The notes: generated by a model not told the origin, from the sequence alone. A stretch of 64,000 bases of DNA from an uncultured Planctomycetia bacterium (GCA_964570585.1 CAZMYR010000001.1:17441-81440); one strand, 5' to 3'; numbered from the stretch's first letter, positions 3,345 through 62,825 are shown. Made by a program: numbers and translations.

Positions 3345-3392
3345 ATGCAGACGGATTCCCTGCTTTAAATATTCTTGCTTCATCTTCTCCAC

Positions 3393-8702: not shown

Positions 8703-8893
8703 TTTCAAATCTCCTCTTTTTTTTGTCATAGTCTTTCATAAATCTTTGCTTTGTTATGCTTAAGTTATAAAAGTCTTTAATTACCCGAATACAGCGCAAC
8801 CCTTTTGCCTCGGTTTGTCCCCCTCGAAAATTTTTTATGGAGACAGTAAAATCGAGGCCAAAGGGTTGTTTAAACGCTATAACTCTATAACCC

Positions 8894-24864: not shown

Positions 24865-25007
24865 AGTTAACCTTTATGCAGTAGTGAATGAATTTATTAT
24901 CGCGCACCCTTCGACTTTTGTATATTCTGCATCCATGGCAGCTTTAAATCTCCTAAACTTCCTTCTTTCTTTCATCTTAATTACCCTTTCTGCTAGGTTT
25001 GGGTTTG

Positions 25008-25122
25008 CCCACCAGCATCAAAAGATGCTGGTGGGCTGGGGGCTAAAGCCATGTTATATGGCTTTACTTTATTCCGTCATTGCGAGCCCTTGACGTCTTC
25101 GATGTCAAGGGCGAAGCAATCT
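25008..25122. promoter_or_regulatory. Two strong hairpins downstream of the giant gene's stop: GCCCACCAGCATC-AAAA-GATGCTGGTGGGC (25008-25037) and an imperfect ~20-bp stem around CCCTTGACGTC...GATGTCAAGGG (25078-25122)
   Basis: A perfect 13-bp inverted repeat is seen directly. No clear T-run follows, so a terminator or RNA-processing role is inferred only. Confidence 0.4.
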
Positions 25123-25174
25123 CAAACGTAGAGATTACTTCGGTTGACTCCGCCAGCTTCCATTAGACTTGATA

Positions 25175-28100
25175 TTAAGCCTGCGAAAGAACCTGTTCAT
25201 GCTCCCTGATATAATCTTCATGCAGATCGCTCAGATCAGAGATAATCTCAAACCTCTTATCCTTAAGCAGCATAATGAGCGCCTCTACTACTTTCTGTCT
25301 GGTCCAGACATCAAGGTCTTCTTTCGCTGATGCGAATACGCGTACCTGTGTTATGCCGTCTTTACTCTGTAACTTGTATGCTATATTCTCTACATTCATT
25401 TGTGCAGTAAATACATAATCGAAATGGTCCCTGGTTATACCTTTTACTTCCAGACTTGCAAGTAAAGTATGCATATTTCTTTCTTTATTCACAAGGCAGA
25501 ATTTCCTGCCGTCTCTTCCGGCAGAAAGCACAAGCTGCTGCAATGCCCTGCTTTCTTTAAGGGCATCGGAATAAATAACTATTGCCTGATTATTCAGCTT
25601 AACTGCTATTTCGCCTTCAGGTGCATAATCGAGTAGAGCCTTTGCAATCTGATATTCAAGCGAATAATCTGCTATCTGTGTTAGGTTAAGACCGCGGATT
25701 TGCTCAGGCATAGGCTCTTTTGCTGGAGGAGCCTTGGCTACCTCTTTGGAGGCGGCAACCTCCATTAACGATTTTATAACATACCTATCAGCAAATAATC
25801 TGAGCGCATAGGTTGCCATCTCCCGAACAAATATATCTGCTTTCTCATCCTGCAAAACAGCTAAAAGCGCCTGCTTCGCTGCTTCAATATCTTCCTGCGG
25901 AATATCTTGGTTTGAATATATTATATTCTCTATGGCAGCGATATTTTCGACACCTGCAAATGATGCGGTTTTGTTTTTATTTAATTCTTCTACCTGAACT
26001 TTTATTTCGCCGGCAGAGGAGGCCTTTGGAGCCTCTGTTTTTGTAACTGAGGGTTTCCCTGCAGCGCCGATAGTAGATGTTGACTCAGGCGGTGGTGTAG
26101 TCTTACCTATAAACCTTGCCAATTCTTCCTTTGCCTTTTGTATATCAGCAGGTATCTCAACCGCAACCATAAAACCTTTGCCAGCAGGCCCATACTCTGT
26201 TAGTTTAGGAACCTCTTCCACCGCAAGCTCAGCAAAATATGGAAACTCATCTATTAGTGTCGAGGTGTCTATAGGCGGTGCATAGCCTATGCGTCTAATC
26301 CTTAAATAAGAGCTGTTTTCGGGTCCATTAACAATCTTATCATATGTAGCTACTGTCCTTCTTTGAAGCATCGGGTGCTGCATTAATATCACCGTGTCCA
26401 GCTCATTGAGGCTGCAATGATTATCCCTGACCTTTTGCTTTTCGGCGCGCCTATCCTCTGAATCAGAGCTATTCACTTCTGCGCTTAATACATCCAAACC
26501 ATTTCTTACGTTTTCTTCTGTCTGCGTAGAAGCTGTTTCTATGATTATATGCGATTCATCAACACCTTTCATTATAAGGGTTTCTTTTATAAGCCTTGCT
26601 TCTGAGACACCGGCCGTTTTCAGTTCCTGGTTTGACTTTTTCTCTATATCCGGAATTTCATCAAAAATAGGCAATTTATACCCGGCCTTTTTAAGATTAG
26701 TTATCAGGAATTTTGTCTCGTGCCCAACCCCGCCGCTTATAAATATGTTTTTGACATTTCCTGCGCGATATAATTCCTCCGCTCTCATTATGTATTCGAG
26801 TCTGCTATTACCGAATAGCCATAGCAGGTCTGCAGAAGGCTGTTCGGTATCTCTCTGCGCGAGGTAATCGAATATCTTCACCAATGCATCTATAATCTCC
26901 TTCTTCAGGACGGTGCCTGCAGAAGAAGCTTTTGTCTTTCCCTCTGTCTGAGTAAGGCTCACGTTGGCAAGTTCCCTGCTGCAGTAGGTTTGAGTAATCG
27001 GGCCTTCCCAGACAGCATATAATATGTTGTTAGCCGTAGCTTTTCCTATATATTTATTTCTATTTTTATTTACCGCATCAAATAACTGCTTTAATTCATC
27101 AGCAGAAACTGGCCTATTTACCCTGCCTAAAACTACATGAACAGCATCCTGTCTAAAGCTGCCGGGGAAAATCTTCTTGGGGAAAATTCCAGACATATTA
27201 TCTCTTATCTGAGTCAGCTGCGGATTGTCAACATATCCTATTGCCATCACAATGCCAACCGAACTTAAAATGGCGCCTTCAAATGTTACATCAAAAGGTT
27301 CTGCCTTTTCTAATATCCTCTTTACACTATCTGTCTTTAACAATATATCTTCAGGCGCATCGCCTTTGTAATCTTTTTTGGAAGAGAAAACGCTGGTATG
27401 GAATCCCACCGCACCATTTTCTGCCGGGGTAGTCCTTTGCGGCTTGCTCCATAAGACTATATCGCCTGGTATATCCCTGGCAATCTGTTCCTGCAGAGAA
27501 ACCAGATTGGCAATCAACTCCTGAGACTGCGGCTGTTTCGGCCATTCTATTACCGCCCCTACTGCCTGGCCTGTTAATGGCTGGCCTGTTTCTGTATAAT
27601 AATCTCTGTTTCTGGTTAAATCATCCCTTGTTATACCCCGGTCCTGTTCTATTTTTTTTCTTGTTTCGTTGTGCAAAGTGTCATATTTCTTATCGAGCGC
27701 GGAACGTGATTCGGGATATATCTTTTTTTCTCCAGAAGGTGAACTCTTTGAAGTTTTTACTGGATAATATAATTTTAGTGAGCTTGATGCTAACTCCTGT
27801 AGCTGTGCATCAACATCTGTATCTGGCTCTCTCCTTGCCTGTCTTAATATTGCTCTCCATTCATCACCAAATAAGGCATTTTTGACTTGTGGATAAAGGA
27901 CTACCTCGGCAGCTTTTAAGAGCTCTGGATTGGCTTTAAAATATTCAACTGTAGCTTCAAGGGCCTCGTATTCTAAGGCATCTGGATGGTTAAGGTGCCA
28001 TACCTCATGCCATACAACGCCGTGTAAAAATGCGTCGTAGGTTTTGGTGTGTCTGGCTTGCCTTTTCGCAAATTCCTCTTTGGTTTCCTCTTTGGTTCCG

Positions 28101-52100: not shown

Positions 52101-55100
52101 TAATTGCCAGATGTAAATTCCACAATTACCGTATTTATAGAACCATCCCGTGCCATTTCCTCTAAAATGGCTTTTATCTCCTCCGGGTTCTTATCCATTA
52201 AATCTTTTATGGAATCGCTTTTTACTATATTATCTAATACTTTCCTAATTATATCCTCAATTATAGTCTGCCTATTTGCGCTCTTATCTTCTAACCTTGC
52301 TAATATGTCACTTAACTCCGATGTCATGCTATCTACATCGGCTACCTCTATATGCCCTTGATTTGATAATTCACCTAAAATTTCACTCACTTTTTTTACT
52401 GCCTCTTCTACTGTCTGTGACCTTTCAACCTCTTCTGCTAAACGCCTCAAATATCCCTCCATATACTGATCTGTAACTTTACCATTTTGCCTTACGCGCC
52501 TGTAATTCCCCTGGCCAATTCGTGAGCGATGAAGAAGAGAATCCACATGATTACTTACGGTCCTGTCTGATTCGCAATTTAGCAGTATGGAACCTACTTC
52601 TTCAGGAACACCTTCAGTAATCATCTCAGCAGGCAACTTGTGGTTTATATGTAACCGCTCCACTAAACCAGTGGTCTTCTGTCCGGAAGTGCCTTTATCA
52701 GGACACATAAAACCATAATCTGTACGTTGAGGTTTTGGCTCTTCGCCCTTTCCTGCTTCTGCTTCGCCTTTTTCTACTCTTGCCATTCGAATAAGCTCCT
52801 TGGAAGATACAAAAGGCAACTTATAATCATCTGCTGTATCTTTCCCAACAGTAGCTGAAGCTAAAGATATTCCTGAAACAAGTCCCATTTCAGGGTTGAG
52901 AACCTCCGGCGTTGTCATCGAGGCAGAAGACATCCTTTCTTTTTCAATCTTTAAGTTAGCATTATTTAACCTGTTTTCCTTTATTCTTACAGCCGTATCA
53001 AGCCCAAAGCTCCATTGTCTTCCTTCCAGCTTTCGGCCGCTTGCGTCCTTATCAATAATATTCAGCTTCCCTCCGGATACATCATATTGCTCTTTCCTGT
53101 TTTGATAAAGATATGCACCGAGCGCCAATTCCATATATTCCTGCCACAAATGGGTATCGCCTATGCCAAAAAGTTTTCCCTTATTTGCTTTATATTCATC
53201 TATTGTATCCAGTATTTGTCCAAGCCACACCTCTCCTGTTCTTTTAAAGGTTACTAAGGAATCGCCTCTTTTACAAAGTTCTCTATTAACATAAAATTTT
53301 CCGTTTCTTTCGAATATGAGCCTGTGTTTCCAGATAAGTTCATCGGCAATTTGTTGCATCCTGAGCCTTTGTTCAGCAAGGTCTGCCAACCCCTGTAGTA
53401 TGCCTGTCCCTGATATAACGCAAGGGGTAAACACATGTTTCTTTAAGGGGTTATCACCTTCATCAAAATAGATAAAGTATGTCTGCCCTTCCCGCACCAA
53501 TGCCAGGTCTTCTTCCTTTCTGGACATAAAGACATCATCCTCGTACCTATGGATGAAGTTATATATATTAATATAAATTACATCAGCTTCTTCAAAAAGC
53601 TTTCTTTCCGTGGTATCCTGCCTGTTGCCTTGCGCATCCACAAAATAGGCCTTTCTGTCTCCTGTTCCTGCCTCTGAAATAACATATCCTGTCTTAGCGC
53701 CAAAATATGCATTAACCCTGCCCGCCTTTCTTCCGTCTCTTTCTATCAGGTTTTCTTCGGTATGAATAATAGCCACATCTCTCTTGCCAGGCCTTTTGCC
53801 TGTTTTCTCACGTTCCCATACATAAGGAAGGCTCTTTAGGAGTGATGTGCCATTAAACACGAATGTCTTTCCGGCGGATGTGGGCATCTCTACTGCGGCG
53901 CCGTTTCTCATAACTTTAGCAACCGCTGCCTGAATCTTCCATTTTTCACGATCCCATTCAATCTCGTGGGTTACCGCATCCTCAGTAAGGCCGCTGGCCA
54001 CTATTGCCTGCTCTATCAATTCTAACAACAGGTCTTTATCAAAATCTACACCTTGTGATTTTAATGACTTTAAAATAACACTAAACCTATCCTGAAATTC
54101 TTCTATCGTCATCCGCTCAAGTACAGGCCCCACTTTTGCAACCTTTTCGCCTTCTGGCACCGCTGGTTTCCTGTCGCTTTCTACCCTTGCTTTTTGCGAG
54201 GTCTCCTGCAGCTGTGCGCGCAGCTTCTTTATAGTATCTTGGGCTCTGGCAAGTTCTTCTTTCTGCCTTGCTTTTTCCCTTCGGGTTTTTTCTAATTCTT
54301 CTTGAACTTCCGCAAGTTTTCTTTCTGCTTCCTCAAGCCTCCCGGTAAGTTCATCAAGTCTCTCGCCGGGAAATAAGGCATCAAAAAGCGGCGTATTTAT
54401 TGATTTGGCAACATCAGGGTCTACTTTAGAAAGGTCTATATTGCTTTCACTGCCATAATATTTTTCTTTGTCGATGCGGTGAAGGCCTCTGAAGTTTCCT
54501 AAAGTAATAGGAACCCGGCCTGCCAGAACCCTGATTCTTCTGCTTAAGGTATCTGCGTTGTGCTTAAACATCCAGGGCCGGATAGGAAATTTTATGCCCT
54601 GTTTTCCGAGTTCTTTATTTAAGGCAACTATATTTTTAAGTTTCTCAATAAATAAAACGCGATTGCTTTTAAGGCTTTTGCGTATTTCCTCAGATTTAAC
54701 AAGCCGCTCTGTATCTTCAGCTGCAAATTCTTTATTTGCCCCGATGTCTTCTAATATTCCTTTCAGAGTCTTTCCGGCAGAGGAGGCTTTGACTTTGGCA
54801 CCAGGAGCCAGGGTCAGTCTCAGTTTCTTATCCTCCTTATCGATTCTGTCAAGCCCGGCCTCATCATTTGCATATAATCTTTTTAGCTTATCTAACTTAA
54901 CTGCATATATATCTTTACCCTCTTCCCATGCAGATGTAAGCTCTTCGAGTCTTCTCTTAAAAAGTTCTTCTTTCGCTTTTTCTATCTTACTTCTTACATC
55001 TTGATAGGCATCCGCCCCTTTAAGGCGTTCAAATTCTTTGGTAAGGTGGGCGGCAACCTGAAATTCAACGCTCGATTTCTCTGTCGGCTTAATCGGTCTC

Positions 55101-57106
55101 TCTTCAAATCTTTCTAATGCGCGCGTTCTTTCAGCGCCTTCTAAAACAGATATATGGAATTTATCTTTATCATCTTTTGAAAGGGAAACCTTAAATACAT
55201 TCTCATAAAAACCAACCAAAATATAGGCATTTTCCTCATCTGGCTCTGCCCTGAAATTCATATGTTGGAGTATCCTGTTAAACTGTTCAGAAGTAACAGG
55301 CCCGGGCATTTCATCCTTTAATTGACTTTCCCCGAGCAGCCTTTTAAAATTACTAAACCAGGCTCCGTGTAATTCTTTTGCATCAACATTAGGATGGCGA
55401 AGATAAGCCTCTGCCGCGCTGCCTATTACCTCTGTAGCTAATCCGACTAAAATTTCCAAACTCTGAAGCATATTCGAATACAGGGTCGCAGCAGCAAGGT
55501 AATATTCGTTATTGGAGAGAATTTCCTCAAATGGCTCTTTTTTGTTTAAGATGATATCTTCATATGGCCTTTCTAATGCATTATGGGAAAATTTGGGGAG
55601 GACTACTATGTAGGAGACGCCTTTGTCTTTTAGGAGTTCTTTCACTCCCTGGGTGTGGAAACCACCGGTGATTAAGACTGCCAACTGGCAACTGTCTACG
55701 TCCATCTTGGCAAGGGTATTTTTGACTATTGCCTTGTCTCTTTTTGCTGCTACTTCATAAAATCTTTCTACTATCGGAAGGGTTTTTGCTATAATCCTCA
55801 TCTCAGGCACTAAGTTTGTGGTAATATTATGCTTTATCATCATCCTGGTAAGCTGGTGGGCTATTGCCTGAGGAATGAATTCATCCCGGTGAGCTTTATA
55901 ATAGGCGAGGTCTCTGTTTATTATCTTGGCATCCAAAAGGTCTACTAATATGTCTGCCCTTCTTGATATCCGGGCAAGTTGTCTCTGGTCATCGTTTTGG
56001 AATAATCTTTCTTCTATTTGCCATCCTAACTCATCCATCTCCTGAAAAAGTTTATCTTGTAGTACAGAGTCGTACATATTGATGTATTCTATGTAATTTT
56101 CAAGGTCCGGATATGCTGTAAAATCTATATCCGCCTTTTTGGCTAAATCGGATAAGTGGTTATGGAAGGTGGAGGACGGAATTTTGTTTAATCTGAAAGA
56201 GAGGCTTTCTGAAAGAAGTTTTTCTATATCCTTTTCGGAAAGTTTTTCTGAAAGAATATTTATAAGTTCTTTTCTTTGGGTTTCTGCTTCTTTAAAATTT
56301 ATTTCTTCTTCTAAGCCGGACGCCTTAAGAAGGGAAAATACGCTTTTATATTTTGATACATCTATTCCTAAAGAGCGGGCTAATCTACCAAGGTGCTGCC
56401 AGTATTCTTTAAATGAGAGCCTTTCGGTTTGATAGGCCCGCCTTTTCTGGTCTAATTCTATTAATCTTCCGGAGTAGATTCCCTTTTTTAGGTCTGAGAC
56501 GGTCTTTTTTAATGTTATGACTGCCTTGTGGATTTCACCTTTGTTATTAAGAGATTCAATATAGGCGCTGACGTTGTCTTTGTAGAGTTGAGGGTCTTCT
56601 GCGCCGTATAATTTTACGTTGGATTTCGATATCGCTTTATAGTATTCAGCGGCATTTATCTTTCCGCGGTTTAAGAAATACTGGGCAAGGTCTTTTCTTA
56701 TTTTATCATGGGGGTGAGAAGAAAGGGGTGAAACATCTACAAAGCCATAGGCGCCTTCGAGCAAAATCAATTTAAGGTTGTAATCTTTAACTAGAACGCC
56801 AAGGAGTTTGCTTATCGATTCCTGCGCGCCTAAATTAGAGTGGGCATCCTGGATATGAATTATAATGCGGTTATTGCCGGCATCAAAGACTTCTCGGACA
56901 ATTCCGTAATCTTCCGGAATGGAGATTTTGGAAAGCTTAACAAAATCCTTAGCCTGCGCATTTAATACCTGATTGCCTCTTACAAATGACCATAAATGTG
57001 TTCCGTTTCCTGCCCAGGCTATCTGCTGGACAAAAAAACAAAAGGCTACAAATAGACTAATAACTTTTATAATTAAGCTATATCTACCTGTAGCCTTTTC
57101 TATCAT
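25175..57106 (-). CDS. Giant membrane-anchored multidomain protein, 10,643 aa (a 31.9-kb gene). N-to-C order: TraB/GumN-like region, SF2-helicase-like ATPase, 10-12-helix TM bundle, ~900-aa coiled coil with internal tandem duplication, Pro-rich linker, long beta-rich regions, three further polytopic TM bundles, HExxH motif, HEAT repeats, DUF218 (SanA/YdcF/ElyC-like) module.
   Basis: ORF track entry: single uninterrupted ORF. ATG at 57104-57106 with an AAGGGGG / AGGG SD-like run upstream. The N-terminal hydrophobic segment LIIKVISLFVAFCFFVQQIAWA is a signal anchor. Domain calls come from motifs read in the translation (see sub-features). Confidence 0.85.
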   Translation of the reverse strand: MIEKATGRYSLIIKVISLFVAFCFFVQQIAWAGNGTHLWSFVRGNQVLNAQAKDFVKLSKISIPEDYGIVREVFDAGNNRIIIHIQDAHSNLGAQESISKLLGVLVKDYNLKLILLEGAYGFVDVSPLSSHPHDKIRKDLAQYFLNRGKINAAEYYKAISKSNVKLYGAEDPQLYKDNVSAYIESLNNKGEIHKAVITLKKTVSDLKKGIYSGRLIELDQKRRAYQTERLSFKEYWQHLGRLARSLGIDVSKYKSVFSLLKASGLEEEINFKEAETQRKELINILSEKLSEKDIEKLLSESLSFRLNKIPSSTFHNHLSDLAKKADIDFTAYPDLENYIEYINMYDSVLQDKLFQEMDELGWQIEERLFQNDDQRQLARISRRADILVDLLDAKIINRDLAYYKAHRDEFIPQAIAHQLTRMMIKHNITTNLVPEMRIIAKTLPIVERFYEVAAKRDKAIVKNTLAKMDVDSCQLAVLITGGFHTQGVKELLKDKGVSYIVVLPKFSHNALERPYEDIILNKKEPFEEILSNNEYYLAAATLYSNMLQSLEILVGLATEVIGSAAEAYLRHPNVDAKELHGAWFSNFKRLLGESQLKDEMPGPVTSEQFNRILQHMNFRAEPDEENAYILVGFYENVFKVSLSKDDKDKFHISVLEGAERTRALERFEERPIKPTEKSSVEFQVAAHLTKEFERLKGADAYQDVRSKIEKAKEELFKRRLEELTSAWEEGKDIYAVKLDKLKRLYANDEAGLDRIDKEDKKLRLTLAPGAKVKASSAGKTLKGILEDIGANKEFAAEDTERLVKSEEIRKSLKSNRVLFIEKLKNIVALNKELGKQGIKFPIRPWMFKHNADTLSRRIRVLAGRVPITLGNFRGLHRIDKEKYYGSESNIDLSKVDPDVAKSINTPLFDALFPGERLDELTGRLEEAERKLAEVQEELEKTRREKARQKEELARAQDTIKKLRAQLQETSQKARVESDRKPAVPEGEKVAKVGPVLERMTIEEFQDRFSVILKSLKSQGVDFDKDLLLELIEQAIVASGLTEDAVTHEIEWDREKWKIQAAVAKVMRNGAAVEMPTSAGKTFVFNGTSLLKSLPYVWEREKTGKRPGKRDVAIIHTEENLIERDGRKAGRVNAYFGAKTGYVISEAGTGDRKAYFVDAQGNRQDTTERKLFEEADVIYINIYNFIHRYEDDVFMSRKEEDLALVREGQTYFIYFDEGDNPLKKHVFTPCVISGTGILQGLADLAEQRLRMQQIADELIWKHRLIFERNGKFYVNRELCKRGDSLVTFKRTGEVWLGQILDTIDEYKANKGKLFGIGDTHLWQEYMELALGAYLYQNRKEQYDVSGGKLNIIDKDASGRKLEGRQWSFGLDTAVRIKENRLNNANLKIEKERMSSASMTTPEVLNPEMGLVSGISLASATVGKDTADDYKLPFVSSKELIRMARVEKGEAEAGKGEEPKPQRTDYGFMCPDKGTSGQKTTGLVERLHINHKLPAEMITEGVPEEVGSILLNCESDRTVSNHVDSLLHRSRIGQGNYRRVRQNGKVTDQYMEGYLRRLAEEVERSQTVEEAVKKVSEILGELSNQGHIEVADVDSMTSELSDILARLEDKSANRQTIIEDIIRKVLDNIVKSDSIKDLMDKNPEEIKAILEEMARDGSINTVIVEFTSGNYYQLKDMVEELSKYKNVIIVSTNLSGRGVDFKGDKMVAISTYCPLTVEDIQFRGRVARNGKIGFWIGVWSLKDDIFIKYRNIIQEELGYFERKTKGAQVYDLKFNLDSEKSKEAKENLKVIEQMREAINDHEQNMRRQEIEFGKFTGKEFNMPQIKFRLQIVRHGIAPLIEKEILDAIAQRIVKAATNFIGGSQKATLSREDILRFMETEFGKDILPLLKAELQLEKDATPPKACELIYDIITDHLKSKALEIIHEGWMKFTDEAGRSKHRLQQASSRPGYERTFLNPQQIYGEIKRLTALSYKTMERQREEKMGKEVTALAHHLAGVIPPEQQQIEAAKELAKKRKISLGDRFKRSSLKILPAAFAIAANIGLAFFLGWVFKALTVGGVGTALGLPVIGNLLSVLLAAGPVGLVVIGVVAIMITWALNSQIKRLSQTDTAAAKMANAIALGEQTTWKDALEAAGLSTWRKTLTIMATFSPFVGAMALLSLVGTAPFTAPTVGAIFFLASAVLGIIGLISSLALLGTARKDLSQAPRLPMSTPKRFFRAFIGGFLTTLGVSALLVAAVEASALMLFVPGLSAVALGGILAYRIFAYSNDSIAKNRWMIIAGFGAGILIGFLGLGLTALFGAFVINSVTAAIAAGSISGGGILAIIGYPIMGLFAIQGVLLMMSQWRFSQRIAENEAIIKGETEAKRISRLAYVGRAAALNARAVMIAAGAILGIVLLFVGGWAVPLAISGTVLFIIKGITALSLLGIATWLGFRTEAIITKRMEKRLDYSHLAKSQAWTFNGSIRNLSASGLGDVSESIRNAVKNFKDNVTGTQNPLQLSFNVLAEAAGKHRLMQEFLEQMQAHSPPKDGGFFSQPEIDLMIFKIPSEILPDEQKPAFRKAITDALVELNIAKVGFSRLSHLARDPEKVTKALNAILMPAMGVSMLASAPAAVVAQSQHEGVAYTKAEINVAEAPKQLLDYCTLLASRAIDNIIHAPQVSEQTPAEIVIDWEGQFKQLRQRIKEGQQQRKRLALYRKFAPDAEEKFKSQIEDAHKELSEAVTDPDKVTAQIRLTELIRAQQEYILEQIRNSATDEQKEELDIIKQRLEDIETLLSLRQQIEQLDTFLNQQKRTLKGLKEQRASEEKEEAQKELDKEIETLTLQISAVEQELNDLIESYNKEAEEKNISARLTVALREIRQKLLISEIGIGPHIVRVEDIADIEREIEQLNNALQRLRLKKEHSTRLAAYARLAPDAEERFKPGIEKAQQELGQAETPLEKTTAQAKLAELMLAQQKYILEQIQKKATDEQIKEAEQIKTQLANIAGLLSLQPRIDQNLLKKVQEIDPDFPAEDLTKERLLQEQEKLLAPEVGIPAHIVHLEGEIKRLEQRLQLLEQLVQILQREYEEPEAGTVVPPPPPERAAQAERAAKVEKPAEEKRPAQPAQPQAQPAIAPENIPQLEALLGELGQLLQKENELSAQARSIEEARSELAESIRELGLIDLAARLNEHSLRYRIKDIIDSSSDTTRKILPLRDQQAALQKKIQAITEKLSQQAQALPQFQAFKEQLTKLEKALADTTNSLTQLEQEIDPAINKELEYITQLEAVLEQLEELNKRQDELTTQQRKLAAARAQLTEKARRLGITDPNVLVSLQILRAAIKAVIKTIPPAAVQPVTQPVVAARQEDILRRHKDVPTMPMNDEAKQAWEEFKKRAKKLVEKNEELSEEAQNDLKKQLELIADDIQRRMKAKEYYKIQKEKAESDAEGGLEQFLRFIVDYDEYKRTHKWYAAEMFEHMDKRFKLKFHIGTPTSLGAGLVRLGDGNFIGVETPNNFNLQQVLDVVGAGLAGTDISPEAYPALALAVLYELTTAPAIKEVEEKGGGLLPDAFCVHVWVNNPQNLLYESKKIKGEDGEKRTSINIIEGNWTKAKLAGPQNFTDLPHMLVTWLRLALGDELGTYQFAPEQLMVWLLAAADTEVDTDTAYWSIERPDVELGEELTTEELRRLGFEGLEDIKSLREIKAALTKNRKFLGIFGQDAIIAEANSFVEGKGFYVYHPKNPEKAYFFKVSDQKIYHTDARLTQIQEACRYVYLRDGRGNRIKENGRYKLQKQVLYQLRMYDERVRKFLESDRPEENRWLKEGHMFLIPTGRDMQRMSQIITYMQEARGAVLIDPQTGKPFFSEDIPSIIPANMPLARKNTFTRANDGESFLMTQSFVSRRGELVMPSLRDMDLRYQLFTGKRILCGVRLDETTEIVDEEGLLPANLIFRRIPIKRFERAKDAEGNLIRQKLTRPERDFYKRLLKQLEDRLKRVNEQLRFAAGTTEQAKLKESAEALKKNIELFEDILKNGKPKIKEVTRYEYRIETKDKAYLESLGFTEVDKKEAAHLYFMPNVEEVNLKTEYGQPVRIEVDVDGRITSVTIDGKDIDQDSLEINLGAVIENEQNFVAGFEADVVKNIKAIIYTPDAIYLQDIEGRLRDISGNIITEYKSLEGKPLALHIIKENRVIDLFGKKINYPGIGEVTLGEDTLVSFEYPNQVTYIDSEGNPQVIPAVIEYTDTHHQMEEKRQEAEASRTIGDRLPYLGERTFGYQLNPYTRIPTVREPKVEETALGLFETEYGKKIRAYILENIKRFGGKKGLVKRLLDITEKSPQAIEEELKKEAESASLSLEEYKQILYLYLKRNEEHLISRQNIRKERLQSVIRMLEQTGALTAKLQYERYFQALQLQYNQWQKEVIDDINGLIQEYQDEQDELRQRIEQTEETIADNPGMDPAMKQALENYILSCEDGIEGIEANIGGMQSDIDRYGVAVDFENNPNGANNRWTELQRYARNVNWGYYGQMDFEDYLAQMPEEAREEFLEILARDAGYFKYREETIIDAYDWYLGLDASEARLSMAAEAVLDKSFKFLLEERHMRMLRTKVLGQITPEVEEDLEKTLAASSKQIRAYLEDAVEKIAAKEEWSAEYTQRALSHVRDFSVKIALNRDAFSDLIFTYEELHNIGFGEVTGFDWINWERLLALPIGYELNTRTSAIEDIYRINRNARVHGLLVNHKLADGKFIKLVALPLEIEWEGKDKKSAGTLMAGPFAGEYIEYLDLDMVSNRRKFTETTSTVYGLFAHPSIDINDRVMLSGVGLLAVNEGNGLNQVEGTTTAMGGKIDYTVSGNFSLFAKTGWVDGKATGITNIHDFDGNPIGIKPSAKASIFNTGAGFNYTDPRTGIKMTLGLERFGEDSGVDSGIETPYIDIADNLQARFEGRAFLGSETLYSSGLEFAYGEIPTTKDMLDEAKAWIKRTSLPTEEVRGMPWPGLTGEVRIDEAMEEFGVSPARSPMTSGTQHFIRQMAQNPTGFPTRPGLSFTLTRNNVYVAESDEGLAPQIYETYLDIFNRKARSIKPVSEQEATAFFNDRIGVDNAERKIPGQREDITSSVRLGLSMLRHIKRYPEADISEQIGSYLYQLAEDILRRQGKDGAIYADKRHTEINPLDNLTVRKFLNEYSKHLRIKPGKPKRYTKAAERITRWVNRNRALIWNRQYNRVYSRITAGQTKGLFGLFKSIKYKQKEPGNLREALAWLLFLEEGEVERVTGSDLRSILHSIGKDNHKTVTARIEEGTGQYREVTISGIGEKEGEVDVEATLLRAYVYKQKISPSLIGVVNHNLQDSAITTAGGSFPRYIREGSVIDRGRADPGITAFYRLVYRQGIPDDKLAGEEAQRQREIDEKYKKFIQEARKRQQYIEEATEGRGLKRYLFVPSFTAAKLYDFTEYNFVNHTGQIKIEGLFKGDTDKYIEEIERYRRMSETDINIDKIEAQALLIGNTDKRTLAERYHIIKTVQDDGSVVYLLEAEEKGKPRKIILTAADKLLVDKKTGRLLKVVHLPEIMRATLAALIEYRNLLGGKNGLAVSWDTFKVEELTGQDFNRILVLGYMTPEQRELCYVNIDETTADDGRILHYIALPGGERHYLEGLVYTPEMMEEEAVFVEDEKGNLVEKTLFELSDIKKDSEGYYVIIDEERYKETGGKEGREDLDADIPVPMQYAPSLDIRYMRLIPQDGRLPKVVMCLSKARINEELTRIQDNYAIIRVSDGEDEYIKTKEGLSKYALRKKLIVDKYTKKAHLVTFARVEINGEWNWYPVDFVKESLDGKDANKGYLQLGFNWADVVKEKISEDKSKNEVVYEVYNKVTKKSSISTFRNGWLVRKEEEGIWLPDEGFVDIATTYHEEKGYPLKTIRVDDGSLFYDFSEITYFEDIGHVTGFTKRKAYKIRAYTRTEYDRSGHRVAEIRFTLDEQSRIIEEENIVNGEFTIITYKDSGEEDLRITFENKDKYKERKRDEYIEIAKAFKETQTIENIQKALKLGIVSIPVSLGNFFIGYQYAPAQKDVKYKTFNSLEELDASGYVRFTEVKAAKNFRLDDGWQDIEFFDIRHDGVRIAKAINGEISFAVLNKARKVIGENTYKYNEATEQIGELKRYSNNSRRVYIGINPGVGAVSDGELNPQNTTVAVLASKPATGYDKVITATASDVHEMKNGEEREELQWVHIEYAKGNSEIEQANDRSAYARDKRFVVDIRHLGLETKDGKAIEQLNFICKDNNLANIEERPKEYSSKHKVKEELREFAVVAIIKGDTFGDKITRAFYGKSLYEAQKKFIEFENKPENKGIEIEETIKGRVSEVHSTTDAFTYVGIFEPQKGGMRRIKIENYTLNGQKPINIDATTQVYGTLSVELLDSKGNPKGALLYYIDENEMAFEGRKADEVAENPRNVEMKPEGEEKDNLKLTLKEVAGEIDKYAPIATDVKKRQPDGTLKPVAVNIDKLGRTVGYYDVQKRIFSYSRYDELNQEEGEHAFKLNEGEKLFETALDIARLESWSADPESGHYKGQSYVYIVDTTKLDISDDKLKEVGIGRGRYILTAADLTELGINRYAPAVERIVRIAQMHNNKSNVPIPPLALYCARIPGRDKTYARIWDDTVEIVIKHKSQNPQPGDVVSKTYERIDNPNGTIGFDKFFGKSVRVNFEDLPQAAKDRMNKHGHGAGVINDYYIAFYRLEQDDRKVYYEDMNKLPDGRWLSMIVDSEGLLYYLIRRFSFGNAIYTVINYDRRGFEDNSITYDVVLDENNNIIKETKKREDDVVKRDIMRNPYLPDMLAGRYIVKKSTKYAPNGDILYTGEVWVDARTGEERLVIDRRIGSKGEPAQKIVYSLPEVTDTPFAYHTLVPGNHLDLRLANGRDDASGFEFLYFYLDADKDTVEFEVEVTDGRTTKKVPLWIPVGMNKIHFKNGKEADRYSVVVAPIDSIQHGNIRVLSIQALKDAGIDITSIEAVRLYYKGAEPIRLGFTTVQLLGDGAISGRGKELKRIYKNHIISGVDVDSDHILATFTSRQGTTTFRIMDRDGSHLLGVRSPRLEANQPRWYTTVYDVNSNQDEPIPRYILDANGNFISLCKMAKLPDGRVAIYEIPDPDGIAGNVLTVVNPAIMNQLEGVVALAYGDNYDIVYPVKGDDWLGRHFSALHVNVVPTVARKLGLLKDPNVDEEVKKRAPKITTIEEYENRYKQIKLLPTLFENLTLPYSEEVAPLAIGGVELDAAVEMLINSQNEKTGLIPTSPYSDYVDTVYELKYIVPFLLRSKKDEALAAVKKILEFYSNQRTIDGKQKALTRFYHLYTGNPEELILKSAEDEVVVFESKATALAQIAAADAAFKLAEKAEREEDKLAAIATARRFLETALSFRRKAGDDGFAQYMEYAGKEKVYYPVGTNSEAYLLLKYVDELDKDTLPEEIKKRLEEININIADVLKKQKEWLINHVLPVLEEQGCVPKSIREVKDWRSGKIRLLAEFLSSPDDWLSFLEAANVMGVNGGKLKASLDNLVRAHGVTVDGKWGLDWKNKITLRREGDAISPELTARFLRMAVKLNHGNATNWAIAELNKYPSVGASLMPELIVKDFDKISQNNVDSGQGFIIIPGSPSISTAEILLDAEGRVIESTMPAVPVAQRDTERFIADYSIETWINASSLLVAALIILGVSRHLIVKSRVAKTKPAKRKRHPKTGSPPVIPDGDKEPTEDQKMPISTRILKWCSGAGAVTATAFGIMAFLFDLPVIFAILSGLASIYTIRRIITLIFIRRAFVNSNINIRGPDGQEREIVHYNADPNARQIEYLCLDEEYRPEGRLEGRKRVFDNLPNIPLLTSIAESVILSHEKIHAAGYGEIVACTMTWTLSFSIIKNALTSLLSGIKRWFLKLSRRKKITVITSVVVGVVAVAFLGLSPAAAILIKWLAAHWNVVLLFVLPTYKLVVLIYSRIWQTTAQRYYRRAKDETPSEILGTEKEREQIINAAHKRFADKVLETVTPFMSNKERQLFIKRKFTASDARAEVTFLYSLMAIYNLIFAKEVSDIKDNNPGMELRHAILKAKTTRGLDSLDNYVKDLGSYFGREIVKGNYVFDVDEKEDRVEIHVHVRPDAERGDYVNGKLRLEKVLEQFGALPGRPNRYLNAFNNLTQAQKDALQSYTMSKEEFDGLPATIRYMLRRARVPGKYNNALISHLETYLFQIRGRIRDAIVQGAEQEDDGEYRGILEESGITEGTFRREEYEKFSKTKGPRGVNPILFRISDFLPDFVLLMLNILHFGTQAGITGSAAGLWYGITTALASLSLSWLLIPVIIFISAALIINIITECYSLAHFNGKGIARKFLAVVPVAGIVFLSMLSLPGMGIGAVLLLMLVKSILALEAFSLLAFSRSLLGLMVYDVSRPSAYVGRPRAVLLVLMQHIIFLTVGTFMGSASLNWFGLHFGEHLLRTWWSAFAFFRAAYLMKTGTYHFMTFIFSWLKPTKGPGKDSLPLTGKPLAEAEKQKRSEEKTLIIYVGDPLDSPSRGKPADITKEVMRAWSALPKKYKDGSIEKIMENMGYDYKGWRALDLDGLPLFKVLLKDKKITEKDLYDWVDFMHKAEHDSEVMFVTPDQFEEDMPRDLRIGIKRSDDKDAPLDYNLTNEEKAKILLGAEIARHVTELMAVSKCRDVAANLYTKSVALGKEGIPDKFNFLIVQNQIKEYEQEGQVASRWAEGKAPGFVKWQKKLARLIELGSNIGYQKYLDERGIQAADRETRRCRAETFRHSTPFSCKAGAMNAMFTKPELMVGATSMVIVDRNATKLNTPKFAEDVMRMRENPNISIMPAYRNTTFLGTPTAISSFLIEFGHGQAMHGIVDKVGTGWENISSVSYRKLLAKELGLNYPLAPITRGMEQFSNSYLDRFFGMIGYSPNAPHQSEDLVAVLLEVYNKISLGEVPESAISEAIAFKMRESFGLDEWSGKAPTRWSGGLYQAEGEPLVQFANHMGPESYFEKRIRRGYGSYFMDSPMSLLNIIALPFEILFNATPFIGVHIIYWMIGTFYNQILRLNGMLARIRARGFLVGFGEWIETLFFDMILFAPRLGIEAFGQIRAYLGLTYEFVASKAETKIDSLSVNKGIFVIERIKSIRDYFTRDILKNLKSDTQGFLGGLKAVMVLGAIMFIFNLWAISILGISNVVLLGIHLIFTSGMLLGPYVMFNPIGDRPGNIAYFMAKVFGAALGIGVMVGLGLGITIAGWWALAPTLAGLVFIGYLFRQYQRAVEEMVKTHPERARIISTIFRSFAISAFLSVWIVAAAAVPLPIALDVPFWVLNANRLILVFAGLITLPLTFVIISHLADNVLFKKYSRKISDLEKRYYDMRRGQGHPEMRYEIAVGGDLVQELRILWHQRAYKLIKQETKDLKELLPQIAPESKKLRANKIKILIKKIKNIIKYFARNNSIFLLLSSLSMLLTGCFRNKDKMSKDEISLLILLIIFITPFVLGILKEFYEWWGEVSPYWDARCKIWHMRLKRYRAIIIALGAIGDDRAKQVLFNKATTDSPNRVKAAIILGGLGDKRAAGSLFKLLHESNVSARTKAKAIRVLKKLGCNVDTDFKQLSQPYPATTTVTDVVPSVTATATYSDGRVTLTATEGEFKPGEKKKLEQHLTRAFSEQGIKDDVTFTVVVSSDQEQVGQHKPSIIEINRYLLQEPWLEQLKTGTKEETKEEFAKRQARHTKTYDAFLHGVVWHEVWHLNHPDALEYEALEATVEYFKANPELLKAAEVVLYPQVKNALFGDEWRAILRQARREPDTDVDAQLQELASSSLKLYYPVKTSKSSPSGEKKIYPESRSALDKKYDTLHNETRKKIEQDRGITRDDLTRNRDYYTETGQPLTGQAVGAVIEWPKQPQSQELIANLVSLQEQIARDIPGDIVLWSKPQRTTPAENGAVGFHTSVFSSKKDYKGDAPEDILLKTDSVKRILEKAEPFDVTFEGAILSSVGIVMAIGYVDNPQLTQIRDNMSGIFPKKIFPGSFRQDAVHVVLGRVNRPVSADELKQLFDAVNKNRNKYIGKATANNILYAVWEGPITQTYCSRELANVSLTQTEGKTKASSAGTVLKKEIIDALVKIFDYLAQRDTEQPSADLLWLFGNSRLEYIMRAEELYRAGNVKNIFISGGVGHETKFLITNLKKAGYKLPIFDEIPDIEKKSNQELKTAGVSEARLIKETLIMKGVDESHIIIETASTQTEENVRNGLDVLSAEVNSSDSEDRRAEKQKVRDNHCSLNELDTVILMQHPMLQRRTVATYDKIVNGPENSSYLRIRRIGYAPPIDTSTLIDEFPYFAELAVEEVPKLTEYGPAGKGFMVAVEIPADIQKAKEELARFIGKTTPPPESTSTIGAAGKPSVTKTEAPKASSAGEIKVQVEELNKNKTASFAGVENIAAIENIIYSNQDIPQEDIEAAKQALLAVLQDEKADIFVREMATYALRLFADRYVIKSLMEVAASKEVAKAPPAKEPMPEQIRGLNLTQIADYSLEYQIAKALLDYAPEGEIAVKLNNQAIVIYSDALKESRALQQLVLSAGRDGRKFCLVNKERNMHTLLASLEVKGITRDHFDYVFTAQMNVENIAYKLQSKDGITQVRVFASAKEDLDVWTRQKVVEALIMLLKDKRFEIISDLSDLHEDYIREHEQVLSQA
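26500..26900 (-). other. DUF218 (SanA/YdcF/ElyC-like) module near the C-terminus
   Basis: LLWLFGNSRLEYIMRAEELYRAGNVKNIFISGGVGHET, verified at 26630-26760. It matches the R-x-A-x-LY...-ISGG core of DUF218. Confidence 0.45.
27990..28025 (-). other. HExxH zinc-metalloprotease-like motif (VVWHEVWHLNH)
   Basis: Seen in translation at 27931-28030. A single short motif is weak evidence. Confidence 0.25.
28430..28660 (-). other. PBS-lyase/HEAT-like repeats
   Basis: RAIIIALGAIGDDRAKQVL ... AAIILGGLGDKRAAGSL ... AKAIRVLKKLG. This is the repeated xALxxxGDxRA pattern. Confidence 0.45.
28740..34010 (-). other. Three further polytopic TM bundles (about 33300-34010, 31750-32600, 28740-30250) separated by soluble regions
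   Basis: Examples are ISTRILKWCSGAGAVTATAFGIMAFLFDLPVIFAILSGL, KITVITSVVVGVVAVAFLGLSPAAAILIKWL, PDFVLLMLNILHFGTQAGITGSAAGLWYGITTALASLSLSWLLIPVIIFISAALII and KAVMVLGAIMFIFNLWAISILGISNVVLLGIHLIFTSGMLLG. Coordinates are approximate. Confidence 0.5.
46600..49300 (-). other. Extended coiled-coil region followed by a Pro-rich linker (PPPPPERAAQAERAAKVEKPAEEKRPAQPAQPQAQP, about 47790-47900)
   Basis: Heptad-like Q/E/K/L-rich sequence over ~900 aa. Coordinates are approximate. Confidence 0.5.
48200..49190 (-). repeat. Intragenic tandem duplication (two ~636-bp / 212-aa units) inside the coiled coil
   Basis: Protein units LALYRKFAPDAEEKFKSQIEDAHKEL...ILEQIRNSATDEQKEEL and LAAYARLAPDAEERFKPGIEKAQQEL...ILEQIQKKATDEQIKEA. 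They are mirrored by the paired antisense ORFs 48240..48500 (MYFCCASISSANLACAVVFSRGVSA...) and 48882..49193 (MYSCCARISSVSLICAVTLSGSVTA...). Confidence 0.7.
49790..51020 (-). other. Polytopic transmembrane bundle 1 (about 10-12 helices)
   Basis: Runs of Ala/Gly/Leu/Ile/Val-rich ~20-aa segments, e.g. AAFAIAANIGLAFFLGWVF, GLVVIGVVAIMITWAL, IIAGFGAGILIGFLGLGLTALFGAFVI. The Ala/Pro-rich plus-strand ORFs 50166..50813 and 50838..51134 are their antisense shadows. Confidence 0.6.
51830..53930 (-). other. SF2 helicase-like ATPase module (Walker A, DEGD, motifs V/VI) with a long insertion
   Basis: EMPTSAGKTFV verified at 53858-53890 (P-loop). Further motifs are FIYFDEGDNPL (motif II-like), IIVSTNLSGRGVDF (motif V-like) and QFRGRVARNGK (motif VI arginine finger). 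Confidence 0.55.
55600..56900 (-). other. TraB/GumN/PrgY-like region at the N-terminus of the giant protein (tentative)
   Basis: RIIIHIQDAHSNLGAQESIS and AVLITGGFHTQGVKELL resemble the two GTAH / GAAH motifs of the TraB family. The similarity is weak. Confidence 0.25.
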
Positions 57107-57815
57107 CTGACCCTAACCCCCTTGGAGCATTAGTCCCCTTAGAACTTAAATCTGAATATCGGCCTGTTTTTAGGGTAAGCCTTCAAAAGATTTATGATGT
57201 TTTTTTCACATTTTTTAAAGACTTTTTTAACTGGCGTAATAAGTATACCATATAAATGCCTGATTGTCAAGGGTTCCTGTGATTTTTTTGCTTGGTCTGC
57301 CCTGCTAAGAAAACTCAGCTTTTGGCAGGTCCGGAGATGCTGTTTAGAAGCTTTTCAAATGCTGTTTATCGACTGAACTTTAATTAATCTTTGTTATAGC
57401 TTATATATTGTATTGCAAATATTATAAGCCCAAACCTCACTGATGTCAAGAATTTTTTTAAAAAATACAGACGTTTCCCAACTCAATCGGGAAACTGCCC
57501 CATTTTCAATCGGGAAAGTGTACCCTGCCATGATACACCAAAACCGAGGAGCATTATGGAGCGAGACATTAGGAATTTTTTGCTATACAAAACGCCATAA
57601 GCGAAGCAATCACCTATGAGCAGTGATAGCATTTTTTTAGCATTTTACGAACGAGAATGAGCGAGCCCCGAAGGTTCGGGGCGAGCGAAGGAAAGTTTGT
57701 GTTTGAGCCCGAACACATCATAAGATGTGAGGGCGAGTTAAATTTTCCCGAAGTGAGTAAAATGCGTGCCAAAGGCAAAAAATGCGTGCTGCGAGTAGGT
57801 GATTGCTGAGCACGT

Positions 57816-58104: not shown

Positions 58105-58133
58105 TTGACAAAGGGCACACATTGTGTTATATT
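58105..58133 (+). promoter_or_regulatory. Sigma70-type promoter TTGACA-17 nt-TATATT driving brnTA
   Basis: -35 box at 58105-58110 and -10 box at 58128-58133, with consensus spacing. Confidence 0.55.
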
Positions 58134-58438
58134 TATATGCATTGAGGTATTATACGTGGAATGATGAAAAAAATAAAAAGTTAATCGTAGAACGAAATAT
58201 CTCTTTTGAAGAAATAATTTTCTATATTGAAAAAGGTTGTTTGCTTGATACTTTAGACCACCCAAACAAGAAAAGATATAAGAGGCAACGCATATTTGTG
58301 GTGAGAGTAAAAAATTATGTTTACCTTGTACCTTTTGTTGAGAAAGAGAAAAACATTTTTTTAAAGACAATTATTCCTAGTCGTAAGGCTACGCGAATAT
58401 ATTTAAAGGAGGATAAAAAAAATGGCCAAACTAGATAA
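58124..58438 (+). CDS. brnT: BrnT-family (DUF497) ribonuclease toxin
   Basis: WNDEKNKKLIVERNISFEEIIFYI ... IFVVRV ... KTIIPSRKATRIYLKE matches BrnT hallmarks (WD..K...N..KH.ISFEE and RIISARKAT). The track start is GTG at 58124, which overlaps the -10 box. An in-frame TTG at 58142 is the more likely, leaderless start. Stop TAA at 58436-58438. Confidence 0.75.
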   Translation: MLYLYALRYYTWNDEKNKKLIVERNISFEEIIFYIEKGCLLDTLDHPNKKRYKRQRIFVVRVKNYVYLVPFVEKEKNIFLKTIIPSRKATRIYLKEDKKNGQTR

Positions 58439-62806: not shown

Positions 62807-62825
62807 CTTTTTGCTCCTTATGTTT

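Follow-up and report, generated by a model that had tools for sequence, protein, structure and literature searches.

The 64,000-nucleotide stretch of DNA analysed here, referred to below as the window, comes from a genome deposited as an uncultured Planctomycetia bacterium (GCA_964570585.1 CAZMYR010000001.1:17441-81440) and carries on its minus strand a giant gene (25175-57106) for a protein of 10,643 amino acids, followed by a stop codon. The protein combines a predicted SecA-type export motor, a polytopic membrane bundle and a very long downstream chain, and the arrangement of these parts raises the prospect that the motor may export the chain to which it belongs. The open reading frame (ORF) is uninterrupted: its own frame holds a single stop, the terminal one, in 10,644 codons, whereas the other five frames hold 313-903 over the same span, and G+C content falls from about 0.5 at the first codon position to about 0.4 at the third and about 0.35 at the second, uniformly in each block of 1,000 codons. 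Because of this single in-frame stop and the uniform codon-position composition, the frame is coding over its whole length, and the ORF is a genuine gene. Upstream of its ATG, at a distance of 136-315 nt, lie two sigma-70-like promoter matches (57242-57449, minus strand), putative elements that are consensus matches only, one of the form TTGACA-17-TATAAT (12/12) and the other of the form TTGACA-17-TATACT (11/12, with TG). That the frame could be an artefact, either an assembly chimera or several genes joined through lost stop codons, is scarcely credible: independent sequences span only residues 1-2660 (P0001, P0002, L002-L005) and 7691-7847 (L069), but, besides the stop counts and composition just given, the relatives are collinear across the first 2,660 residues, and ORFs of at least 10,000 residues are documented in complete long-read Omnitrophota genomes (10.64898/2026.06.07.730766).

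A preliminary description of the stretch had listed the domains of this protein, and most of its items stood, with two amendments: an ATPase labelled SF2-helicase-like (superfamily 2) needs correction to SecA, and a TraB-like region is reached only by sub-threshold matches. The ATPase occupies residues ~990-2015; all parts of the protein cited here and below lie on the minus strand. Its first portion (residues 991-1440; 52787-54136) reads as a SecA-like nucleotide-binding domain 1 (NBD1) with an inserted preprotein cross-linking domain (PPXD), as indicated by Pfam, PDB sequences, AlphaFold2 (AF2) and Foldseek, and contains by motif scan the Walker A sequence EMPTSAGKT (1073-1081; 53864-53890) and DEGD (1215-1218; 53453-53464). 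The second nucleotide-binding domain (NBD2; 1441-1775; 51782-52786), supported by Helicase_C, profile, alignment and AF2, harbours a helical insertion of ~110 residues, and the alignment places in it motif V (GRGVD, ~1695-1699) and motif VI (QFRGRVAR, 1719-1726; 51929-51952). A predicted scaffold helix, helical wing and two-helix finger follow (1776-2015; 51062-51781), the finger loop SSRPGYERTFLN with Tyr1949 covering residues 1944-1955 (about 51242-51277).

At the level of sequence, Pfam detects SecA_DEAD at residues 987-1399 (1.4e-8; 34.8 bits against a cutoff of 24.6), Helicase_C at 1672-1728 (6e-5; 23.7 against 23.5) and SecA_PP_bind at 1320-1373 (2.3e-4; 22.1 bits, slightly below its cutoff of 23.5), while SecA_SW was not reported in a scan of residues 1-5000 at E<=0.01. 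The only PDB sequences matching the first 5,000 residues are SecA chains, among them E. coli SecA (5.5e-5), whose alignment covers chain residues 189-357, PPXD included. An exhaustive HMMER search with residues 960-2020, the best-conserved module of a nearly orphan sequence, returned 48 matches among 1.84 billion representative proteins: two fragments ~47-49% identical (P0001 and P0002), then about a dozen ~30% identical fragments of very large membrane proteins, and then canonical SecAs. A word-index homologue search had missed the 47-49% identical relatives that HMMER recovered, and blanks it returned on queries rich in charged or low-complexity sequence (two segments) do not amount to absence. 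A home-made SecA profile, built from 10 canonical sequences among the 48, matches the giant at 6e-37 and, in several of the ~30% identical relatives, extends 110-165 positions beyond motif VI; profile-profile alignment with hhalign (98.7% probability) is collinear through NBD2, the scaffold helix and the wing, up to the start of the two-helix finger.

Structural prediction agrees with this assignment. The AF2 model of the motor, computed from a 31-sequence alignment, reaches a mean local confidence (pLDDT) of 80.7 and a global score (pTM) of 0.80, shows the PPXD as a mixed alpha/beta insert (model residues ~280-430), and continues after NBD2 with a helix of 53 residues, which leads into a small helical domain and then a helical hairpin whose loop contains Tyr1949 (helices 821-873, 940-984 and 997-1034 in model numbering). 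In canonical SecA, the fingertip likewise bears a functionally important aromatic residue. Searched against the PDB with Foldseek, the model has SecA or SecA2 as its 25 best matches without exception (E 2e-23 to 1e-12), in alignments of 1,046-1,159 columns with full SecA chains, and its best target-normalised TM-score, 0.67, is to 6itc, a substrate-engaged SecA-SecY structure (PMC6599042). The next fold class consists of RIG-I-like helicases at 7e-6. An identity as a generic SF2 RNA or DNA helicase was rejected, SecA winning over the RIG-I-like helicases by about 17 orders of magnitude and the sole helicase-family match, RhlB, scoring 18.6 bits against a cutoff of 564.

The P-loop that the preliminary description had called intact is so, together with DEGD and motifs V and VI, even though the ATPase is specifically a SecA rather than a generic SF2 protein. 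Near-invariant positions in the 31-sequence alignment comprise G1079/K1080, D1215/E1216, G1696/D1698 of motif V and Q1719/R1723/R1726 of motif VI; the wider sequences TNLSGRGVDF (motif V) and QFRGRVAR (motif VI) are conserved, and the catalytic motifs are kept across giant-type relatives as well. Judged from sequence and model together, the ATPase is a complete SecA homologue, with predicted NBD1, PPXD, NBD2, scaffold helix, wing and two-helix finger, the scaffold and wing being predicted as present in a form too divergent for Pfam.

The likeness to canonical SecA thus extends from the Walker A and DExD motifs of NBD1 through the inserted PPXD and motifs V and VI of NBD2 to the scaffold helix, the wing and a finger with the aromatic Tyr1949. 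The differences lie in context and divergence: the module is embedded at ~990-2015 of a 10,643-residue chain, shares only ~18-20% identity with canonical SecA, has a signal-like helix, the Tiki-like domain described below and a coiled coil in place of the lipid-binding N-terminus, and, in place of the C-terminal linker and zinc-binding, SecB-docking tail, which were not encountered, has a membrane bundle of 10 transmembrane (TM) helices that begins within about 75 residues after the finger. The zinc-binding tail is also missing in some bona fide SecA and SecA2 proteins. These deviations bear on whether the module might have given up translocation and serve as an anchor or scaffold, through regulatory nucleotide binding or docking at SecYEG or the membrane, the whole protein then being a static envelope-spanning scaffold or adhesin. 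The scarcity of matches, the low identity to canonical SecA and the missing C-terminal tail would suit such a role, as would the very long branches reported for giant-protein SecA domains (West-Roberts et al., 10.1101/2023.11.21.568195), but the Walker A lysine, the DE pair, motif V and the motif VI arginines are all kept, here and in giant-type relatives, PPXD, scaffold and finger are predicted by AF2 at good confidence, and the centre of the protein lacks adhesin-type repeats. Given this conservation of catalytic motifs and domains, a dead domain is not expected, and a non-translocating module is distinctly unlikely.

Throughout this analysis, TM helices were taken from Kyte-Doolittle windows and oriented by the positive-inside rule. 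The preliminary description had proposed a 10-12-helix membrane bundle after the ATPase, and membrane bundle 1 (residues 2029-2426; 49829-51022), whose first helix starts about 75 residues past the finger, is best read as five TM hairpins, 10 helices in total, and has conserved, lysine/arginine-rich (K/R-rich) loops predicted to be cytoplasmic. It passes into a conserved, helical juxtamembrane domain, likewise predicted cytoplasmic (2427-2593; 49328-49828), and then into a single, weakly hydrophobic TM helix (2594-2612; 49271-49327; Kyte-Doolittle score 1.8), conserved in P0002, which we propose as an internal signal anchor leading from inside to outside. The junction recurs: in ten relatives (P0001, P0004-P0007, P0009, P0010, P0012, L003 and L005) the DExD motif and the bundle are separated by ~590-740 residues, with longer spacings in L002 (933) and in the giant itself (814). 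A free SecA likewise has ~590-740 residues between its DExD motif and its C-terminus; the membrane domain thus takes the place of the SecA C-terminal tail, and by these sequence comparisons motor plus bundle is a conserved unit that recurs in ten or more relatives. Only in P0001, P0002 and P0011 is the bundle detectably homologous to bundle 1; in their alignment, conserved K/R-rich loops alternate with short uncharged ones.

Bundle 1 shows no similarity to PDB chains at E<=10, and a SecY-like channel, tested specifically, received neither profile nor PDB-sequence similarity; secY, secE and secG are likewise missing from the 64-kb window. A self-contained translocon that dispenses with SecY, in which motor and bundle together would form both the engine and the conduit for about 6,800 residues of their own chain, with the signal-like helix acting in cis as a tether or clamp ligand, is improbable; if true, it would amount to a new, autonomous principle of protein export in Omnitrophota.

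Orientation of the chain can be predicted from its charges. The 15 residues preceding the helix at 2029 contain 6 K/R, and in bundle 1 as a whole K/R account for 30 of 160 residues proposed to lie inside and for 1 of 60 outside; over the complete topology model K/R reach a density of 0.20 on the inside and of 0.05 on the outside (Fisher P 1.5e-7), a test that is partly circular because the weak helices 2594-2612 and 7843-7866 were chosen partly by their fit to the positive-inside rule. The loop following the helix at 7646-7664 has 8 K/R in its first 15 residues, and therefore the preceding 5,033 residues should be outside. In the resulting predicted topology, which counts about 29 TM helices in addition to the signal-like N-terminus, residues 2427-2593 would be inside, helix 2594-2612 would lead out and helix 7646-7664 back in; residues 7922-8235 would again be inside, 8409-8984 outside and 9308-9438 inside, and the end of the protein, with its HEAT repeats and DUF218 module, outside. 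About 6,800 residues would accordingly cross the membrane in this model, namely 2613-7645, 8409-8984 and 9458-10643.

The first of these segments opens with a helical, coiled-coil-type stalk (2620-3420; 46847-49249), which is rich in E, K, Q and L and combines the protein's highest helix propensity with its lowest content of Gly and Pro, as judged by propensity, composition and tiled BLAST. The latter also uncovered two duplications: residues 2664-2780 correspond to 2875-2994 with 48% identity (E 5e-27; offset 211-214 residues), and, more weakly, 3077-3284 to 3217-3416 (E 3e-10), both repeats being decayed at the DNA level. The preliminary description had proposed a ~900-residue coiled coil with a duplicated 212-residue unit; the helical stalk and the unit were recovered, at a stalk length closer to ~760-800 residues, as was its poly-Pro linker, which corresponds to PPPPP at 3073 within a Pro/Ala/Gln-rich segment of the stalk (3070-3116; 47759-47899). 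Were it one continuous helix, at 0.15 nm per residue, the stalk may extend up to roughly 110 nm, although it may fold back.

Beyond the stalk lies a non-repetitive region of 4,220 residues with no detectable domain (3421-7640; 34187-46846), predicted to be extracytoplasmic from the orientation of the flanking TM helices. The preliminary description had proposed several thousand residues of beta-rich sequence here; crude propensities point to a mixed alpha/beta composition, and neither Pfam, NCBIfam nor PDB sequences gave a credible match, also when the region was searched in 500-residue tiles; DNA and tiled protein comparisons detected no internal repeats in it. In the giant gene as a whole, neither tandem nor dispersed DNA repeats stood out, the only local duplications being the two in the stalk, and Pfam scans of the protein revealed no adhesin domains. 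A repetitive giant adhesin of the RTX, Bap or SRR type was considered and rejected, as there are no arrays of Ig-like, cadherin-like or serine-rich repeats.

The remainder of the chain returns to the membrane three times, in keeping with the three further polytopic bundles that had been proposed. Membrane cluster 2 (7641-7932; 33311-34186), with 4-5 TM helices, contains a conserved module that comprises an HExxH motif, HEKIH (7831-7835; 33602-33616). A soluble segment predicted to be cytoplasmic (7933-8235; 32402-33310) separates it from cluster 3 (8236-8408; 31883-32401), about five helices assigned by hydropathy, which is followed by a second soluble segment, predicted extracytoplasmic and devoid of detectable domains (8409-8984; 30155-31882). 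Cluster 4 (8985-9457; 28736-30154) comprises about 7-8 helices (8985-9307), a K/R-rich loop (9308-9438) and a last, single helix (9439-9457).

HEAT repeats then occupy residues about 9485-9580 (28367-28654), as previously proposed, with a HEAT_2 match at 1e-7 (32.5 bits against a cutoff of 27.7) and matches to alphaRep and natural HEAT chains of the PDB down to 1.4e-18, in 2-5 matched stretches. The DUF218 module of the YdcF/ElyC/SanA family also held up, at about 10106-10330 (26117-26791; PF02698, 7.9e-8, 32.7 bits against 27.7), with YdcF (3ca8) at E 2.7e-7, and the C-terminal tail (10331-10643; 25178-26116) adds one weak extra HEAT-like match. In E. coli, the DUF218 domains of ElyC, SanA and YgjQ are predicted to be periplasmic (PMC3879167); the DUF218 module of the giant resembles ElyC and SanA in its predicted position outside, to which the flanks of the preceding TM helix point, and differs from ElyC, SanA, YgjQ and YdcF in being the last module of its protein, after HEAT repeats and about 500 residues without assignment.

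An HExxH motif had also been indicated. Two occur, at 7831 and 9700, where shuffled sequences would give 0.24 (P about 0.02); the second, HEVWH followed by LNH (9700-9704; 27995-28009), is a motif without profile support, and no peptidase profile of Pfam matches either region. The module around 7831 is 43-47% identical to the N-terminus of an ORF (L069) on a complete Omnitrophota chromosome (CP070780.1), where the motif reads HERTH; this single homologue makes for weak evidence, and a wider homologue search with the module found nothing. The ORF in question (L069 6425-9460, plus strand) has 1,011 residues, opens with a module of two TM helices and HExxH equivalent to giant residues 7691-7860, and continues to a motif, "IIHGDYYAHNIIW ... 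DWE", that resembles phosphotransferases of the aminoglycoside/choline-kinase type; it lies directly upstream of a 1,836-residue ORF with a Tiki-like domain.

At the opposite end, the protein begins with a Sec-type signal peptide or signal anchor (residues 1-32; 57011-57106), the preliminary description having proposed the latter: K4 and R8 precede a hydrophobic segment at residues 11-29, after which comes a site of the form A-W-A followed by G. A signal-like N-terminus is kept in P0001, P0049-P0052 and L002-L004, and in P0001 it stands only ~190 residues before the SecA-like module. The domain that follows (33-560; 55427-57010) belongs to a family with 74 homologues in a collection of 5.8 billion proteins, of which nearly every named one comes from a metagenome-assembled genome (MAG) of Candidatus Omnitrophota, and with at least 590 loci in GTDB species genomes, the best 80 of them all Omnitrophota, although some of these 80 are labelled "Planctomycetia" by one assembly pipeline. 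Three motifs, IQDAH (85-89), EG (117-118) and TGGFH (480-484), are nearly invariant among 57 sequences. Proteins combining a signal peptide with IQDAH and TGGFH often occur in several copies per genome without Pfam annotation, and a 133-kb contig, PLNN01000019.1, has three such loci (L008, L064 and L067).

The domain is a candidate hydrolase of the Tiki/ChaN/TraB superfamily with a helical insert. Residues 33-560 of the giant match nothing in Pfam even at E<=1, but 12 of 57 family members match PF04187 (ChaN, Tiki superfamily) below threshold (best score 24.5 bits, cutoff 27.7), mostly over, and collinear with, the C-terminal TGGFH motif, one DUF5694 match being collinear with it too; PF01963 (TraB/PrgY) is not listed among the Pfam matches of family members. 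TraB belongs to the same superfamily as ChaN and Tiki, and the order H-x-Q-D-A-H, central E-G and C-terminal T-G-G-F-H may resemble that of the Tiki/TraB-PrgY/ChaN/erythromycin-esterase signature, from which the family differs in that no member reaches a Pfam gathering score and in a ~200-residue helical insert between the motifs. The TraB-like label of the preliminary description is therefore a reasonable lead rather than an established assignment. Between this domain and the motor extends a charged helical linker (561-990; 54137-55426), coiled-coil-like at ~913-985, with weak coiled-coil-type Pfam matches only.

The N-terminal domain and the motor are connected in other genomes as well. At 15 of the best 80 loci, the next 10 kb downstream include a SecA-like module, and in L002, L003 and L005 both are encoded in one open frame of more than 3,800 residues. 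The closest genome relative, L002 (JAZDPX010000023.1 9890-21586, plus strand), is 59% identical to the giant over residues 1-769, and 73% in the best segment, with only about 25% identity in the SecA-like module; the modules would therefore evolve, or be exchanged, at very different rates, which suggests a module-wise mosaic evolution among giant genes.

The likeliest reading, to which we give about an even chance, is that this is an inner-membrane giant of the Omnitrophota type that carries its own SecA and uses it to export its own downstream chain. The motor would sit in the cytoplasm, held at the membrane by bundle 1, and would already be folded when the internal signal anchor (2594-2612) emerges during translation; it would then push segments 2613-7645, 8409-8984 and 9458-10643 across the inner membrane at the expense of ATP, with either SecYEG or its own bundle as the passage. 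Such an order of parts agrees with co-translational use of the motor. The exported parts would be the helical stalk, the 4,200-residue body, the 576-residue loop and the HEAT/DUF218 end. The stalk would hold the large non-repetitive domain off the membrane, towards the cell surface, a host or a prey, and the DUF218 module, on the periplasmic side like that of ElyC and SanA, could act in the metabolism of envelope precursors. The earlier suggestion of an ATP-driven molecular machine rather than a passive adhesin fits a complete, motif-intact SecA fused to a polytopic membrane domain and a centre without adhesin-type repeats, and among the roles it had considered, secretion, rather than membrane fusion or cell-cell attachment, is the one to which the evidence points.

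Several observations weigh against self-export. The two-helix finger, aligned on its own, gives only a weak match (P=0.023); the AF2 model of the bundle, based on four sequences, is unusable at pLDDT 47, with only residues 2427-2593 at 70-80; and the topology derives from hydropathy and charge rather than from a trained predictor. Moreover, a conserved neighbourhood with type II/IV secretion genes upstream and pilZ downstream has been reported for giant genes (10.1101/2023.11.21.568195), and the type II secretion and pilZ genes are absent from the 64-kb window, which covers 6.9 kb upstream. Many members of the IQDAH/TGGFH family are, in addition, stand-alone proteins of ~500 residues with classical signal peptides. 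A further difficulty is the signal peptide itself, a textbook example that precedes ~2,000 residues predicted to be cytoplasmic: as Kyte-Doolittle analysis detects no hydrophobic segment between residues 30 and 2029, the standard reading, with a cleaved or N-in signal, would put the ATPase outside the cytoplasm, at odds both with the ATP that it needs and with the charges of bundle 1. Possible ways out are that the signal peptide serves as an uncleaved tether in place of the lipid-binding N-terminus of SecA, that the clamp of the motor binds it in cis, or that the N-terminal region acts outside the producer cell.

Taken to its conclusion, the standard reading of the signal peptide has the first 2,000 residues, Tiki-like domain and ATPase included, exported to act, for example, in or on a host or prey with ATP, the TM bundles inserting into a foreign membrane. 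To our knowledge, no mechanism exists that would export a folded 1,000-residue motor and then 29 TM helices, and such an export would also reverse the clean positive-inside pattern of bundle 1, so that this possibility is very improbable in spite of the textbook character of the signal peptide and its conservation in relatives, the secreted appearance of the stand-alone Tiki-like proteins and a similar pairing of signal peptides with cytoplasm-type enzymes in the neighbouring ORFs. Omnitrophota are, moreover, reported to be host-dependent or predatory (10.1101/2023.11.21.568195; 10.64898/2026.06.07.730766), which would also accord with it.

Downstream of the giant gene and on the same minus strand (window 3-24864) lie those neighbours, three large ORFs of 1,900, 3,292 and at least 2,911 residues, the last cut by the window edge. 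Each combines a signal-like hydrophobic N-terminus with sugar enzymes of a cytoplasmic type; the domains detected are NTP_transf_3, two cupins (AUDH, 4.7e-37, and MPI), PGM_PMM_II, a class-II aldolase and, weakly, UDPGP, and most of the length of the three ORFs has no match in domain scans. A tie between the DUF218/ElyC module, as an envelope-homeostasis factor, and the sugar modules had been proposed earlier; the envelope link finds support in the literature (PMC3879167) and the sugar-activation domains are indeed next door, while a functional connection between the two would be inference only. In the self-export reading, these multi-enzymes may, speculatively, contribute by providing glycans or modifying them.

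These ORFs also call for comparison with the accessory Sec system of Gram-positive bacteria (SecA2/SecY2/Asp), in which, as outlined in PMC5578698 and PMC5076819, a specialised SecA paralogue serves very large surface proteins beside sugar-modifying enzymes, at loci that combine SecA2, a dedicated channel and glycosylation genes. The giant could, by analogy with the export of one class of large glycoproteins by SecA2/SecY2, be a dedicated accessory translocase for other proteins, such as the three multi-enzymes, with their signal-like N-termini and sugar-nucleotide and sugar-phosphate domains, and SecA2 structures do rank among the top fold matches of its motor. The systems differ, however, in that motor, channel and substrate are separate in accessory Sec, whereas here the motor and its presumed substrate form one polypeptide with about 6,800 residues of its own to export; no SecY2 or Asp homologues were seen in the window, the bundle resembles neither SecY nor any other PDB chain, the neighbours are sugar-activation and isomerase enzymes rather than Gtf glycosyltransferases, and the lineage is another. 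Enzymes that consume NTP and sugar phosphates would, furthermore, be odd export substrates, and a role as an accessory translocase is thus possible but rather unlikely.

The broader affinities of the protein are with giants already described. Wherever homologues of the SecA-plus-bundle module are named, their source is a Candidatus Omnitrophota MAG, and from the relatives of the protein we infer that the genome itself belongs to Omnitrophota. West-Roberts et al. (2023, 10.1101/2023.11.21.568195) described giant, TM-rich, SecA_DEAD-bearing proteins of this phylum and suggested self-export in general terms, and Nielsen and Lui (2026, 10.64898/2026.06.07.730766) delineated a 20-protein PF07517 architecture cluster. 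The protein is most likely a further example of this published class, and not a new kind of machine: it shares with the class the phylum, a length of at least 10,000 residues, many TM helices, a signal peptide together with TM segments, SecA_DEAD and SecA_PP_bind, a chain mostly invisible to Pfam, HEAT repeats and a protease-like domain beside the N-terminal signal peptide. Within it, the protein stands at the small end (10.6 thousand residues) and lacks the glycosyl-hydrolase, methyltransferase, NUDIX and dockerin domains by which the "Archaeovorin" and "Dockerin" types are defined; a Tiki/ChaN-like N-terminal domain takes the place of C39 or S8, and whereas the SecA modules of giant proteins were stated in 2023 to lack scaffold and wing (10.1101/2023.11.21.568195), scaffold, wing and two-helix finger are predicted here. 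The variant features relative to the class are therefore the Tiki-like N-terminal domain, the predicted complete scaffold with two-helix finger, the DUF218 terminus and a different gene neighbourhood.

Proteins of 10,000 to 150,000 residues, of which Omnitrophota are the richest source, raise the question of how bacteria produce them, insert them and put them to use, and the present giant is small enough for dissection. What is added here is the predicted completeness of the motor and its exact junction with the bundle, in the giant and in at least ten relatives, so that the loose idea of a SecA domain that may help export becomes a concrete proposal, in which the motor acts in cis and is tethered next to an internal signal anchor. 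In addition, the coexistence of a signal peptide with a cytoplasm-type ATPase is a conserved contradiction that any model of Omnitrophota giants must resolve.

Several smaller features surround the giant gene. The 310-nt spacer after its stop codon (24865-25174) contains two long G+C-rich inverted repeats found by eye, CCCACCAGCATC...GATGCTGGTGGG and GCCCTTGAC...GTCAAGGGC, which a simple terminator scan of the coding strand did not call and which could be terminator-like or REP-like (repetitive extragenic palindromic) elements. Upstream of the giant gene are a BrnT/BrnA pair, IscB with a HEARO RNA, a Fic protein and a response-regulator/histidine-kinase pair. The first consists of two small overlapping ORFs on the plus strand (58124-58694), between the giant's promoter region and the IscB element, which encode a BrnT toxin-like protein (PF04365, 2.6e-7, under its gathering score) and a CopG-type antitoxin-like protein (PF12441, 4.5e-6). 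Next, on the same strand (58770-60315), a HEARO RNA (58770-58991; Rfam RF02033, 119.7 bits, E 3.8e-24) runs into an ORF with RRXRR (1.2e-63), HNH and a "KPLMPCSP" motif, which together look like an IscB-type nuclease with a guide-like RNA; since the start assigned mechanically to the ORF, at 58840, falls within the RNA, the true start is probably further downstream. A protein with DUF4172 and Fic domains follows (60408-61535, plus strand), and JGI metagenome 3300031624 has a contig of 2,359 bp that codes for the identical protein (Ga0315545_1046150; L001). Finally, the minus strand at 61622-63992 encodes an unusual 394-residue fusion of a response-regulator receiver with a phosphopantetheine-binding, acyl carrier protein-like domain, beside a 388-residue protein with GAF and histidine-kinase-ATPase domains.

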